Origin: a virus
Strand: one strand, 5' to 3'
IMG/VR virus record: IMGVR_UViG_3300027805_000010
Coordinates: 14,610-78,609 of that record
DNA: 64,000 nucleotides
A model generated the notes under the pieces. It had not been told where the DNA came from, searched no databases, and worked only from the letters and a program-made list of their open reading frames with translations. The position numbers and the translations under genes were made by a program. Numbering within the stretch: position 1 is the first letter of the stretch; each line of letters opens with the position of its first letter. Positions 1 to 3,603 of the stretch are shown in pieces.

Positions 1-1047
1 GGGGCATCAAATGGAAACACTTCTACGAATAACCAGAATACTAATGCAAATGGGAACACCAATGGGGGAGGCACTGGCCAAGGCCAAACAAATGCTGGCT
101 CCAATGGAAGTACCGGAAGTACTGGAAGTACCGAAGGCGGCACAAGCGGATCAGGCACAAGCGGATCAGGCACAAGTGGATCAGGTACAAGTGGATCAGG
201 TACAAGTGGATCAGGTACAAGTGGATCAGGCACAAGTGGATCAGGCACAAGTGGATCAGGTACAAGTGGATCAGGCACCGAAGGTGGAACAAACACAACA
301 AGCGAACCACCAGGGACCGAGGAAGGTGGTAAAACAAATCTTGTAGGATCATCTGTAAATTCAGTACAAAATTCAACGTCGGGTGGGAATCCTAGTAACA
401 AAAATGGAAACCGTCCTACTGTTTTGGCAAGTTCGGATTTTGTTGGTTTCCAATTTCAGAATTCAGATGTAGCAGTAGGTGGCAAATTTACCGGTGGTTA
501 TGCATCAATGAGATGGGACGGTGCAAGATCCTGGGGTATTAACATGGATTATACTACTGCATTAAGAGGTCCTAATATTACCGGCTATTATGCCTTTATG
601 AAACCAAAACGAATAGATCTTATATCAGTAACAGGTACAATAGGATTTGAGGCTCAACCTACGTTATACAGTACATTATCAGTTGGGCAGATGTGGAGTT
701 TAAATAAACCAAAGAATATGAAATTGGTTTATATGTTAACTGGTTCATTTGGTCAGGTTTACGGAGCTGACTTTATTGGTACTGCAGCTATTGCTGGTGG
801 TATGTATGATTTTAAAATAACTAATAGATTTGACTTTAAGGTATTAATGCTTTATGTTTATGCACCTTATGTTAGCTATTATAATGATATATTACTTAAA
901 TCCCCTCATGTAGTGTTACCTATTATTGGTACTAATATTAATTTGACAAAGAGGTTTAAACTTAATATAAACACAGGTGGTGCATGGGCAGTAAAAGATG
1001 CTGCGCTTAACTACACCATTATGTTAGGAACTAGAATGTTATTATGA
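1..1047 (+). CDS. 5'-truncated protein: Gly/Ser/Asn/Thr-rich linker with (GTSGS)9 followed by a C-terminal amphipathic beta-strand (putative outer-membrane barrel) domain
   Basis: Frame 1 is open from base 1 (GASNGNTSTNNQ...GTSGS...) with no stop into the 424..1047 ORF, so the TTG at 424 is not the true start. The C-terminal ~200 aa show alternating hydrophobic/aromatic strands (FDFKVLMLYVY, FKLNINTGGAW, YTIMLGTRMLL). Stop overlaps the next ATG (ATGA). Confidence 0.75.
   Translation, partial: GASNGNTSTNNQNTNANGNTNGGGTGQGQTNAGSNGSTGSTGSTEGGTSGSGTSGSGTSGSGTSGSGTSGSGTSGSGTSGSGTSGSGTSGSGTEGGTNTTSEPPGTEEGGKTNLVGSSVNSVQNSTSGGNPSNKNGNRPTVLASSDFVGFQFQNSDVAVGGKFTGGYASMRWDGARSWGINMDYTTALRGPNITGYYAFMKPKRIDLISVTGTIGFEAQPTLYSTLSVGQMWSLNKPKNMKLVYMLTGSFGQVYGADFIGTAAIAGGMYDFKITNRFDFKVLMLYVYAPYVSYYNDILLKSPHVVLPIIGTNINLTKRFKLNINTGGAWAVKDAALNYTIMLGTRMLL
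139..273 (+). repeat. 15-bp tandem repeat x9 (GGYACAAGYGGATCA) encoding (GTSGS)9
   Basis: Nine consecutive units read directly; variation only at synonymous third positions of frame 1. Confidence 0.95.
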
Positions 1048-2717
1048 TTAGAAGATTTCTTTTTATCCTATTGGTTTTTGTTTCAACGATAACCAATGCT
1101 CAAACATTTACACACTCAGGTTATATTCGTAATGCTGATGGGAGTGGTGCGATTAATGTACCTGTTAAACTATATAAGAGAACAACACCTACATTAACAG
1201 GATTCACTTCACAAACCAATTACAACGGTCACTCTTATTACCGCTCAACTGGGTCTATGACTTGGACATCAGCAAAAACTGCATGTGAGAATATGGGAGG
1301 CCACCTTGCTACAGTATCAAATGTAGCTGAAAACAATTTTCTTTTTAATACATGGCCTTCGGGTTGGATTGGTTATTACCAAGATAGAGTTGCTGGTTAC
1401 ACTTATTCAGAACCACTTGGTGGATACCGCTGGACTGAAACTCAAGTAACCACAAATCTTCAAGCTGACTACGATGTTTCTTCTTATTCAGCTGGCTCAA
1501 CTTTATCAGACATTAAAAGTTCTATTCATGCAACTTTATACAATTCACCTGCGTATTCAAGCACAGGTGGTAAATACTTAGCATTTAACGGTTCTAACCA
1601 ATATGCAATAACTAGCAATCTAGCTTCAAGATTTTCTTCAACAGCAATATCAGTGGTTGCCTGGGTTTACCCAACAGGAAATGGCGTAATTGCATCTGAA
1701 TTAAACATTCAAAGTCCATCATCCAGTTGGCATGAATCAATCATGGAAATCACAGGATCAAATACTTTAAGGGTTGGTTTTTGGAATGGCATAGGTATTA
1801 CTCAATTAAGTACTGCTATTACACTCAATACATGGAACATGGTTTGTATTACTTATGACGGTACCACAATGAGAGGATATTTGAATAATGTTAGTTTTGG
1901 AAGTATAAACTTTTCTCGCCAAGCAGCATTTATACATGGAGGAAACGGGCAACAACATTTTGCTTTTGGTTTACAAGATGCTACCAACATGGGTCATGGT
2001 GGGTATGGTGCTTTTAGATTAGGCGACATTCAATTCTTTGATAGAGCTATTACTTTAGACGAAATAGACAGAACGTTTAACCTTTATGCTTATAGGTACA
2101 GAACAAATCAATATGCCAACTGGAATCCGGGCGAACCAAATAACTCAGGTAACGAAGACTACACACAATTTGTAGGTGGAGGTAAGTGGAACGATTTGGC
2201 AAATTCATCGTTACCCTATGTAATTGAATTTGATTATGTGGTTACATTTACTCCTTGGGTTCTTCATCAGACTGTCTATACCAATTCATCCGGCTATTAT
2301 TCATTTTCGCAATCAACAAATCCTGCCACAGAATGGTACATACAAATAGATGCAGTTGATCCTATTACAAATTTACAACTATCCGATATGATTGGGGCAA
2401 GCGATGTTATACTTGGAAAGACTCCAAAAAAATCTATACATTGGGTTCAATATGATTTAAACGGCGACGGCGATATTACAATATCTGATGTTTACCATAT
2501 TAATTATAGAAAGAATGGTTATGCAATAAATTGGGTAGGTACTTTTAAATCAAGAATATTTACAACATCACAATACACATCTTTAATAAATGGTACAACG
2601 GACATTAGATCATCTATACCTGGTGTATCTTCAATAACCATAAATTCACCTGTTAGTGGTGGTACCTCAAATTACTATTTACTTTCACCAGGATATAAAA
2701 CACAAGTTACATACTAA
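1044..2717 (+). CDS. Exported adhesin-like protein: C-type lectin with inserted LamG/concanavalin-like domain, prealbumin-like sandwich and dockerin-like Ca-binding loop
   Basis: Signal peptide (MIRRFLFILLVFVSTITNA|Q); CTL motifs YNGHSYY, TWTSAKTAC..GGHLA, WIG, later W.PGEPN and WND; LamG motifs (LAFNGSNQY, SVVAWVYP, WNMVCITYDG, FFDRAIT); DLNGDGDITISD loop. Confidence 0.8.
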   Translation: MIRRFLFILLVFVSTITNAQTFTHSGYIRNADGSGAINVPVKLYKRTTPTLTGFTSQTNYNGHSYYRSTGSMTWTSAKTACENMGGHLATVSNVAENNFLFNTWPSGWIGYYQDRVAGYTYSEPLGGYRWTETQVTTNLQADYDVSSYSAGSTLSDIKSSIHATLYNSPAYSSTGGKYLAFNGSNQYAITSNLASRFSSTAISVVAWVYPTGNGVIASELNIQSPSSSWHESIMEITGSNTLRVGFWNGIGITQLSTAITLNTWNMVCITYDGTTMRGYLNNVSFGSINFSRQAAFIHGGNGQQHFAFGLQDATNMGHGGYGAFRLGDIQFFDRAITLDEIDRTFNLYAYRYRTNQYANWNPGEPNNSGNEDYTQFVGGGKWNDLANSSLPYVIEFDYVVTFTPWVLHQTVYTNSSGYYSFSQSTNPATEWYIQIDAVDPITNLQLSDMIGASDVILGKTPKKSIHWVQYDLNGDGDITISDVYHINYRKNGYAINWVGTFKSRIFTTSQYTSLINGTTDIRSSIPGVSSITINSPVSGGTSNYYLLSPGYKTQVTY

Positions 2718-3169
2718 TGAAAAATTTAATACTTACTATTTTATTCTTAATTCCACTATTTGGGTTTTCACAGGAATGTATCACAGTTGATTCAATATAT
2801 TCAACTGCTAAGCTAAGAGAATTAGGAAACCGAGATATTCGCTTTGGAATTAAACAGATGGCAGAAGAACTTCTATCAGAGAAATATTGTTTATCAGAAC
2901 AAGGTCAGGATCTTGACATTGAAGTTTTTTATTTTGGTATCCCTAAAACCACAATAAGAATTGTAGGTGTTGAAAAAACAAATCAAGTTACTCAAGTAGG
3001 TGTAAGAATATATCACAACGGTAATAAATATGAAGGCTTTGGGGAATCAGAAACGGAGGTAAGGGCCGTTATGATTGAACTTGTAGATGGAAAGGTACCA
3101 TTTTCTAAAATGACAGTTTCCAATGCATTAAAAAAAGCTATCATCGAATGTATTTCAAAAATGCCATAA
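2717..3169 (+). CDS. Exported protein, putative CsgG/HfaB-like fold
   Basis: Signal peptide (...LFGFS|Q); helix FGIKQMAEELL, beta-hairpin strands (IEVFYFG...QVGVRIY, YEGFGESETE) and terminal helix FSKMTVSNALKKAI resemble CsgG-family architecture. Fold call is from recall, not a search. Confidence 0.4.
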   Translation: MKNLILTILFLIPLFGFSQECITVDSIYSTAKLRELGNRDIRFGIKQMAEELLSEKYCLSEQGQDLDIEVFYFGIPKTTIRIVGVEKTNQVTQVGVRIYHNGNKYEGFGESETEVRAVMIELVDGKVPFSKMTVSNALKKAIIECISKMP

Positions 3170-3603
3170 CCTGTATTTTATTTGCAGTTCCTTCTTTAGT
3201 GTTTTCACAAATTAAAATTGATGATGTTGGTGATGGGTGGAAGTCTAAAGTTGACTCTGCAATTGTCCTTATTAAAAATACGGATCCTGAAAAGTATCAG
3301 GTTTTAATCAATAATTGTGAAAGAGTTGAATTCATAATAGGTGATCATTCCACAACACTACCACCTAAGACTATAGTTATAACGGTTAAAGATGTTCAGC
3401 ATCCATCCATTAATAACATTGCAGCAATTCTTGTACATGAATCTTTTCATTTAAAGATATGGAATGCTAATGTAAAGCTAACACCAAAGGAAGAAGAGAA
3501 GGCTGCTTATACATGGGAATATGACTTCTTATGTAAACTTCCACAAGTTGAAGATTGGCTATTCTTAAATGCAGTCAATAATATTATTAAGTATAGTAAT
3601 TAA
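3148..3603 (+). CDS. Exported zincin-like metallopeptidase
   Basis: Signal peptide (...SLVFS|Q); HESFH (HExxH) followed by EEKAAY third-ligand helix. Confidence 0.65.
   Translation: MYFKNAITCILFAVPSLVFSQIKIDDVGDGWKSKVDSAIVLIKNTDPEKYQVLINNCERVEFIIGDHSTTLPPKTIVITVKDVQHPSINNIAAILVHESFHLKIWNANVKLTPKEEEKAAYTWEYDFLCKLPQVEDWLFLNAVNNIIKYSN

Follow-up and report, generated by a model that had tools for sequence, protein, structure and literature searches.

An operon of exported CsgG-fold, beta-barrel and lectin proteins in a large freshwater phage of Flavobacterium-type bacteria, with a possible role in surface display on infected cells

Phages are usually thought to alter the surface of their hosts through single genes, such as those for exclusion lipoproteins or O-antigen modifiers. 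A more elaborate case is the csgG/csgF 'curli' cluster of pelagimyophages and of the methylophage Melnitz, which two reports describe in phages whose host has no such genes, and for which they propose roles in aggregation ('sibling capture') or in the timing of lysis (PMC7029224, PMC9004378). The subject of the present analysis is a different block, an operon of eight genes on the IMG/VR virus record IMGVR_UViG_3300027805_000010, the 3' half of which opens a 64,000-nucleotide stretch of that record (the window, whose position 1 is base 14,610 of the contig). The products of this operon all appear to be exported to the envelope of the infected cell, and the best explanation for them, to which we assign a probability of about one half, is the display of a lectin scaffold on the cell surface. 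The pelagimyophage and Melnitz clusters resemble the operon in encoding CsgG-type outer-membrane proteins, and differ from it in having a recognizable CsgG and CsgF, whereas the contig has no CsgF or CsgE and no direct match to the Pfam CsgG family (PMC7029224, PMC9004378). The contig has instead two divergent paralogs, a 12-strand barrel, a cohesin scaffold tagged for the type IX secretion system (T9SS) and a lectin, and its phage infects a host of another phylum. The parts are of known kinds, and phage csgG/csgF clusters are already in print, as are phage proteins that obey the 'Q-rule' described below; the combination of cohesin, T9SS domain and lectin was not found in print. A literature search, which did not extend to supplementary gene tables (e.g., those for the immuto phages), returned no paper on the Flavobacterium-phage block or on this combination, and the papers listed that mention immuto deal with other subjects.

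The source record is linear, 78,609 bases long and about 30% complete by CheckV. Its phage nature is indicated by PHROG matches to tail-fibre and baseplate-wedge proteins and by a DNA ligase farther along the window. The closest named relatives are the Flavobacterium phages vB_FspM_immuto, and the contig belongs to a large freshwater phage of Flavobacterium-type bacteria. A first-pass annotation made from the sequence alone had reported four overlapping genes on one strand at the start of the window and had suggested that the operon was cut by the window edge with more parts upstream. All four open reading frames (ORFs) were found again on the plus strand at window positions 1..1047 (5' end cut by the window edge), 1044..2717, 2717..3169 and 3148..3603, together with their overlaps (ATGA at 1044-1047, TAATG at 2715-2719 and 22 nt at 3148-3169). 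The complete operon comprises eight genes that overlap or abut within about 7.4 kb (contig 10861-18212), and the four genes of the window are its 3' half. The upstream parts are genes for a 639-aa cohesin/T9SS scaffold (contig 10861-12780), membrane proteins of 107 aa (12787-13110) and 105 aa (13104-13421), and a 239-aa CsgG homolog (13437-14156). They are followed by the 499-aa barrel gene, which occupies contig 14157-15656 at full length and of which the window holds the 3' 348 codons, and the operon ends at contig 18212 after the three complete genes of the window.

Export of these proteins was assessed with a home-made rule that looks for a basic N-terminus, a 10-residue window with a mean Kyte-Doolittle value of at least 2.3, and a small residue followed by Gln. 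The rule picks six of the 78 non-overlapping ORFs that start with ATG and encode at least 80 aa in the 78.6-kb contig. These six, the large proteins of the operon, come from neighbouring genes within contig 10861-18212, among them the full-length 499-aa gene and all three complete members of the operon in the window. Family alignments show little or no variation at the Gln behind the predicted cleavage site. Both the Sec signal peptides cleaved before Gln and the phage operon of exported proteins, which had been proposed from the window alone, are therefore supported, the former by a crude rule and a family-conserved residue and the latter by a contiguous block of signal peptides. Gln behind the signal peptidase I site is given as the Bacteroidetes 'Q-rule' in one report (PMC5837995), and Q-rule-obeying phage proteins are noted for Porphyromonas phages in another (PMC10367356).

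The 239-aa protein is a remote homolog of CsgG in both fold and profile, and it is the only protein of the operon for which this can be said. Its AlphaFold2 model, built from 36 diverse sequences, has a mean predicted local distance difference test (pLDDT) score of 81.4 and a predicted template modelling (pTM) score of 0.72, with long strands at residues 134-151, 156-173 and 179-195 whose tips are charged. The best Foldseek matches of the model are all CsgG (E about 1e-7, TM scores of 0.52-0.61), as are the top eight rows in VIA (Z of 12.5-13.4 with 174-195 residues aligned); the next family in VIA has a Z of 10.2 and is followed by PelC, LptE and TraT. Alignment of the 239-aa family profile with E. 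coli CsgG by hhalign gave a probability of 92.3% (E 5.5e-7) over 228 columns. The full CsgG that had been expected upstream of the window is thus present. The protein shares its fold and remote homology with E. coli CsgG (PDB 4uv2, 4uv3, 6l7a), from which it differs in having only about 15% identity, a signal peptidase I site, hairpin regions that are shorter and carry more charge, and no curli partners. Neither the 239-aa protein, the 150-aa protein nor any other part of the contig matched the Pfam CsgG family (PF03783) at E <=10, and searches of PDB with the sequences and family profiles of the 150-, 151- and 239-aa proteins returned nothing significant. The family is large but narrow, with 6388 proteins at E <=0.001 (90% clusters) and only 273 representatives at 50% identity. 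The JGI name CsgG is on 8 among 120 matches listed, and one 'CsgG' protein of an uncultured phage was matched in BFVD (E 1.4e-8). The Pfam CsgG cut-off is passed by five of ten distant relatives scanned, and some of the distant relatives are fused to protein kinases or caspases.

The 150-aa exported protein (window 2717..3169, plus strand) is a short paralog of the 239-aa protein. An hhalign comparison of the two families gave 97.2% (E 3.7e-11) over 116 columns, interrupted by a gap of some 40 residues. The first-pass annotation had called this protein CsgG-like and had envisaged it as an 8-9-mer pore. The former description holds insofar as the protein is a shortened paralog of a CsgG homolog, and it fails as a direct relationship, as there is no match to E. 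coli CsgG by hhalign, to Pfam CsgG or to PDB. The pore is not credible, since some 40 residues of the fold are missing and a direct match to CsgG is lacking. A lenient Pfam scan of 32 members of the family found only scattered, unrelated weak matches, and the family has no lipobox because the spacing between Gln and Cys varies. A match of the single sequence to PDB 6xi1, 'Flagellin hook IN motif family' (E 2.6e-5, residues 90-142), disappeared when the family profile was used. In the Atlas, one viral cluster with Lipoprotein_16 on 23% of its members is a lead for the protein and nothing beyond a lead.

The 499-aa protein (window 1..1047, plus strand) consists of a signal peptide, a small N-terminal domain, a low-complexity linker and a C-terminal domain predicted to form an outer-membrane barrel. 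The family alignment divides accordingly into an N-domain (about 100 aa, two Cys conserved), a linker of G/S/T/N/Q and a C-domain (about 210 aa). The N- and C-domains are conserved and the linker differs in length and sequence in every homolog. In the window, part of the linker is encoded by a 15-nt tandem repeat of 9.3 copies specifying (GTSGS)n (positions 139..278; Tandem Repeats Finder, 96% matches, score 238). The flexible glycine-serine linker and amphipathic beta-strand domain that had been noticed in the cut gene are thereby confirmed, and can now be specified as a tandem-repeat linker and a 12-strand barrel. The AlphaFold2 model, built from 27 sequences, has a mean pLDDT of 61, a value that averages the disordered residues 118-286 with the C-domain. 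Residues 23-119 are structured, and the 12 C-terminal strands have pLDDT values of mostly 74-89 in blocks of 10 residues. The barrel domain spans residues 291-498 of 499 (window 418..1041).

Foldseek gave 144 PDB matches to the barrel model at E <=0.001, and the matches listed are outer-membrane barrels. The top rows in VIA are the NalP translocator (1uyn; Z 24.9, root-mean-square deviation 2.9, 233 residues aligned) and EspP (8bo2_P; Z 24.3), followed by EstA, AaaA, Hbp and AIDA-I. FapF (5o65_C) reaches a Z of 19.9 and the 12-strand porin KdgM (4pr7_A) a Z of 19.7 (root-mean-square deviation 1.6, 167 aligned). Judged from the model, the C-domain is a 12-strand outer-membrane barrel of the autotransporter/FapF type. 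Like the type Va autotransporters (NalP, EspP, EstA) and FapF, the 499-aa protein carries this barrel behind N-terminal material. Unlike the autotransporters it has about 170 disordered residues between helix and barrel, a 'passenger' of only about 100 aa and no match to the Pfam autotransporter family; no Pfam family at all was matched at E <=0.1. The VIA alignments with autotransporters start at residues 47-79 of the model, suggesting that its long helix at residues 82-119 sits inside the barrel like the pore helix of NalP. This is only a hint because the helix has a pLDDT of 51-71 and lies about 170 residues from the barrel in sequence. Pfam, NCBIfam and PHROGs returned no family for the first, third and fourth genes of the window.

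The proteins that would carry the binding function are the scaffold and the adhesin. The presence of a cohesin upstream of the window had been foreseen, and the 639-aa protein has two stretches matching Cohesin (PF00963; 41.6 bits, cut-off 24.1). It also has a T9SS type-A sorting domain, the only one in the contig (Por_Secre_tail, 37 bits with Pfam; TIGR04183, 31.2; 40.7 in a six-frame search), and a Dockerin_1 loop that scores 18.9 bits, below the cut-off of 22.9. The 557-aa exported adhesin (window 1044..2717, plus strand) consists of a C-type lectin domain with an inserted LamG domain, followed by a constant C-terminal module with a dockerin-like loop. The N-terminal part of the C-type lectin lies at residues 71-137 (window 1254..1454; PF00059, E 5.3e-8, profile positions 2-64 of 107; Lectin_C, 34.0 bits against a cut-off of 22.6), and the LamG/concanavalin-like insert at residues 182-341 (1587..2066; PF13385, E 2e-12, profile positions 1-150 of 151; Laminin_G_3, 47.9 bits against 27.6). 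With both domains above their cut-offs, the double-lectin protein of the first-pass annotation stands. The lectin domain resumes past the insert, where it carries an EPN...WND motif at residues 364-384 (2133..2195; regular-expression match). This motif is the Ca2+/sugar site of mannose-type C-type lectins, from which ligands of the mannose, GlcNAc or glucose type would be expected, and the protein thus has both the family profile and the site motif of a C-type lectin. It has only two Cys, and the usual disulfides of C-type lectins are therefore absent. The dockerin-like Ca2+ loop that had been noticed, of the pattern DxNxDGxIxxxD, is present at residues 471-482 (2454..2489); the protein has no match to the Pfam dockerin families.

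The C-terminal 150-170 residues or so of the adhesin are common to the middle of the 639-aa scaffold and to every protein found in the same slot in relatives. The heads of these slot proteins are Lectin_C, Laminin_G_3, Ig_7 or GEVED. Among 46 distinct slot proteins (67 including identical ones), EPN..WND and the dockerin-loop pattern are each present in 36, and a signal peptide before Gln in 44. The variety of heads on a common tail makes the 557-aa protein an adhesin with a swappable head and a constant tail. The arrangement recalls the cohesin-dockerin pairs of cellulosomes and the T9SS type-A cargo of Bacteroidota, in which a surface-sorted cohesin scaffold is likewise combined with interchangeable dockerin-tagged binders. 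It differs in being phage-encoded, in having lectins rather than enzymes as heads, and in its single sub-threshold dockerin loop, and the pairing is putative.

The last gene of the operon encodes a 151-aa exported protein (window 3148..3603, plus strand) with the HExxH motif HESFH at residues 97-101 (3436..3450). All of 24 homologs share the residues H97, E98, S99, H101, E116, E117, Y121, E124, W137 and C57. Weak, sub-threshold Pfam matches among 24 members of the family are to SprT-like (10 members, best E 5.8e-4), Tox-MPTase2 (6) and DUF2268 (2), all of which are zincin families, and the protein is likely to be a minimal zincin on this sequence evidence. The HExxH peptidase of the first-pass annotation is upheld as regards the motif, and has to be qualified in that the gene is an accessory member of the block (32/63 loci; see below) that is absent from immuto. 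Two Atlas leads for the protein, DUF6647 and eCIS_core, both score 0.92 with fewer than 170 shared features. DUF6647 was not confirmed, as its profile gave no match. The 107-aa inner-membrane protein is bitopic. Its N-terminus and transmembrane segment are conserved, its tail is of low complexity, and all 34 sequences end in Trp. The second small membrane protein has two transmembrane segments and is holin-like.

Searching IMG/VR with the 239-aa protein gave at least 155 relatives, on contigs of up to 373 kb. Conservation was counted in the best 80 of 155 relatives, of which one was dropped because the gene was cut at the end, leaving 79, and each member was scored against the loci long enough to show it. 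The scaffold is present in 75/75 loci, the 107-aa inner-membrane protein in 76/76, the barrel protein in 68/70, the adhesin slot in 62/63 and the 150-aa paralog in 63/63; the second membrane protein is found in 16/76 and the HExxH protein, as noted, in about half. Gene order is conserved in the loci examined, and the linkage in relatives that the first reading of the window had called for is thus borne out. Among GenBank phages, the 239-aa protein matches only four immuto records. In the cultured lytic phage immuto (MW353175), the same block is formed by immuto26A_13 to _19, five of whose seven genes are annotated as hypothetical proteins only. Identities to the contig are 62% for the inner-membrane protein, 61% for the CsgG homolog (237 aa), 28% for the tethered barrel (474 aa), 33% for the short paralog (151 aa) and 49% for a 'lectin C-type domain-containing protein', and immuto also has a cohesin protein with a T9SS tail. 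In immuto, by comparison with the contig, two genes encode the scaffold, the lectin gene is in first place and its 332-aa product has no LamG domain, and the HExxH gene is missing. The immuto block is preceded by genes of nucleotide metabolism, with the closest cell-wall hydrolase about 6 kb off.

On these grounds the block probably makes the surface of the infected cell sticky. In the proposed mechanism, the Sec system of the host would send the products of the operon into the envelope of a Flavobacterium-type cell, where the barrel and the two CsgG-fold proteins would assemble into an outer-membrane complex that the inner-membrane protein reaches across the periplasm. The T9SS of the host would export the scaffold and anchor it on the surface. 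The dockerin-bearing lectin would be brought out, possibly via the phage's own complex, and dock on the cohesins, and the HExxH protein might trim or mature one of the components. The infected cell could then bind glycans of neighbouring cells or particles. Aggregation, anti-grazing and superinfection exclusion, which the first-pass annotation had proposed as purposes of a glycan-binding structure on the cell surface, are putative roles.

Several observations weigh against surface display of a lectin scaffold. No T9SS sorting domain of type A or B was found in the lectin, the barrel protein, either CsgG-like protein or the HExxH protein; the type-A domain (Por_Secre_tail/TIGR04183) is confined to the 639-aa scaffold and is lacking from the four genes of the window, and both the type-B domain CHU_C and PorP_SprF are absent. 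With no known sorting domain of this kind, the lectin lacks a demonstrated way through the outer membrane. The dockerin assignment depends on one loop each in the lectin and the scaffold, below threshold by profile. The phage CsgG homolog has an Ala/Ser-Gln signal peptidase I site and no lipobox, whereas its bacterial relatives have ..GC. The membrane pore of CsgG is a nonamer of 36 strands built from two hairpins. Compared with what we take to be these hairpins in E. coli CsgG, the aligned stretches of the 239-aa protein are shorter and carry more charge, and a pore formed by this protein is therefore only putative. CsgE and CsgF (PF10614 and PF10627) were without a match at E <=10 in the 78.6-kb contig, which represents about 30% of the genome. 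In the barrel model, the N-domain and helix reach a pLDDT of only 51-85. The 80 loci were not de-replicated, and an endolysin or a 195-aa gene that accompanies it lies within 8 kb of the block in 25 of 49 loci. Finally, no clumping was seen with a cultured phage carrying csgGF, though that is a different system (PMC9004378).

A fuller version of surface display is that the block builds a phage-borne export-and-display organelle. The two CsgG-fold proteins would form a hetero-oligomeric ring around the tethered barrel, with the Trp-tipped protein as the link to the inner membrane. This complex would carry the dockerin-tagged lectins to the surface, where they would dock on a scaffold planted by the T9SS. 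The infected cell would thereby turn into a glycan-binding 'sibling capture' trap that keeps nearby hosts or particles close up to lysis, and heads would be swapped as host coats change. This is a tentative picture that we consider clearly less probable than display of a lectin scaffold as such.

Alternatively, the block could be an accessory of lysis or egress, in which the inner-membrane protein, the CsgG-like ring or rings and the tethered barrel make up a trans-envelope device. Such a device would time lysis or breach the outer membrane in the manner of a spanin, pinholin or secretin, and the lectin and scaffold would be secondary. The genomic neighbourhood offers some encouragement, as a GH19 endolysin and the 195-aa gene are directly upstream here, and one or the other lies within 8 kb on either side in the 25 loci mentioned; neither a spanin nor a holin was annotated next to them. 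The block itself supplies a bitopic inner-membrane protein and, in 16/76 loci, the two-segment holin-like protein. The Melnitz report also proposes a role in lysis timing for the CsgG of that phage (PMC9004378). With regard to a spanin, the tail of the 107-aa protein is of low complexity without an evident coiled coil, and the block encodes no lipobox partner. A lysis device needs neither a T9SS-tagged cohesin scaffold nor a lectin slot, yet these are conserved in nearly every locus, and the remaining 24 of the 49 loci have no lysis gene within 8 kb; the distance of the immuto hydrolase points the same way. We regard a lysis function as unlikely.

About equally unlikely is superinfection exclusion or receptor masking, in which the exported proteins would cover phage receptors, such as T9SS-dependent adhesins, and so protect the infected cell or prevent the loss of progeny on debris. 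Flavobacterium phages depend on gliding/T9SS surface proteins, all products of the block are bound for the envelope, and the scaffold uses the T9SS of the host. A hypervariable adhesin slot would fit an arms race, and TraT, a decameric lipoprotein of surface exclusion, is among the structures that the model of the CsgG-like protein resembles (Z 7.7-8.0). That match is weak, however, and stands among many lipoproteins of the same general fold, and a sugar-binding head that keeps its EPN..WND site intact would suit an adhesin better than a mask. Avoidance of coinfection is discussed for envelope genes of other aquatic phages in one report (PMC7029224).

Secretion of a curli- or Fap-like polymer or amyloid, with the CsgG homolog and the FapF-like barrel exporting a fibre subunit, is less probable still. 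The subunit would perhaps be the N/Q/G/S/T-rich region or an unrecognized protein. This explanation draws on the CsgG homology, the Z of 19.9 with FapF, the length of the N/Q/G/S/T-rich segment, and the proposal, in one report, of 'sibling capture' by phage curli genes (PMC7029224). Against it, CsgE and CsgF were not found in the contig, and no candidate for a repeat-bearing fibre subunit was found there either, in a search that did not include CsgA and CsgB themselves. Unlike amyloid repeats, the low-complexity segment varies in both sequence and length, and autotransporters outscore FapF as matches of the barrel. That the lectin and scaffold decorate released virions or debris rather than the living cell is very improbable. 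In favour of it, phage fibres often bear lectin-fold and Ig-like heads, and the operon is followed at about 11 kb by tail-fibre genes. However, the Sec signal peptides on six large products, the outer-membrane barrel and the T9SS domain are unfit for virion assembly in the cytoplasm, and the block has no PHROG structural matches.

Display of a lectin scaffold, if true, would mean that a virus builds an adhesion organelle on its host, with consequences for how Flavobacteria, a major group of polysaccharide degraders, aggregate and attach to particles. In contrast to the single-gene changes referred to above, it would involve a multi-part envelope apparatus conserved across at least 155 IMG/VR stretches. 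The cultured pair of immuto and Flavobacterium sp. LMO8 makes the question testable. The block is of real interest because it is widespread, consists of many parts and can be tested in a cultured system.

Diverse bacteria have cellular counterparts of the core of the phage block (two CsgG-like proteins and a barrel), and exported caspase-like proteases are encoded next to some of these. A scan of cellular genomes, with one genome per species, gave 18 loci, of which L096, L097 and perhaps L095 are phage-like and the others come from many phyla. Two adjacent CsgG-like genes are present in 11 of the 18, and the hidden Markov model (HMM) of the 150-aa family also matches the second CsgG-like gene of the bacterial pairs. 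The barrel HMM matches a neighbour in a Spirochaetia chromosome (E 1e-7), and other neighbours end in ..RF, a C-terminus that is an outer-membrane-protein signature. Peptidase_C14 caspase domains occur on three of ten bacterial neighbours scanned, which matches the CsgG-caspase fusions among the relatives of the 239-aa protein. Clusters L085, L087, L089, L091 and L094 are like the phage block in having paired CsgG-like genes, a related barrel and a protease nearby. They are unlike it in that the CsgG-like proteins are lipoproteins, the linker of the barrel is short, the protease is a caspase rather than an HExxH protein, and there is no cohesin, lectin or T9SS tag. From the pairing of CsgG-like genes with barrel and protease neighbours in bacteria, we conclude that the phage core comes from a cellular envelope system in which a protease is likewise kept close by.

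The bacterial clusters point to an unstudied cellular system of paired CsgG-like lipoproteins, a barrel and an exported caspase, and we know of no described function for such clusters. Paired CsgG-like lipoproteins, an ..RF barrel and an exported Peptidase_C14 protein are encoded at L091:3482-9921, L094:5405-9895, L085:7959-10899 and L089:7959-10326, and relatives include both CsgG-caspase and kinase-CsgG fusions. The phage block is present on the contigs of L096 (254 kb, from a Bacteroidetes metagenome-assembled genome) and L097 (112 kb, from a Sediminibacterium metagenome-assembled genome). With the barrel HMM, L096 reaches 685 bits and L097 an E of 1e-16, and L097 also has an endolysin and the Trp-tipped membrane protein. 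These two are probably phage DNA in the bins, or else a relative that infects Chitinophagaceae, and L095 is perhaps phage DNA too.

DNA near-identical to the contig was found in 17 DNA runs from eight studies of estuary, freshwater, lake and plankton samples. Contigs on the lectin gene came from the RNA libraries of two studies and were of about 1.1 kb at about 96% identity in one and of 269 nt in the other. Coverage of the operon in these libraries is partial, being mainly of the lectin gene and short pieces, and neighbouring genes are barely covered. The contigs are a weak hint of transcription, and could reflect strong transcription of the lectin gene of a relative or carry-over of DNA. The contigs of about 1.1 kb are from a freshwater-sediment metatranscriptome and lie over contig 15764-16978 (window 1155-2369) with word depths of 17 and 90. 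A scan for sigma-70 promoters returned 28 sites, fewer than the 38.2 in shuffled sequences, with Bacteroidota promoters being outside the scope of the tool. A terminator scan returned seven sites against 4.3 expected, none of them convincing between operon genes, and the window has no tRNA gene.

Upstream of the operon, the endolysin gene, with PG_binding_1 and GH19 domains, occupies contig 9365-10198, and the conserved 195-aa gene, which has no Pfam family, occupies 10224-10811 between it and the scaffold gene. In relatives, the 195-aa gene accompanies the GH19 endolysin and may precede or follow the operon; the identity of its product reaches 96%. Directly after the operon, a polynucleotide kinase/phosphatase is split into two genes (window 3668-4528), the first encoding a 151-aa HAD_PNKP phosphatase (E 5.7e-33) and the second a 133-aa AAA_33 kinase. 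Next to these, at window 4509-5955, are three small ORFs of 85, 80 and 90 aa whose N-termini are lipoprotein-like, with a hydrophobic stretch ending in Cys. Their products are possible outer-membrane lipoproteins and are perhaps spanin-like.

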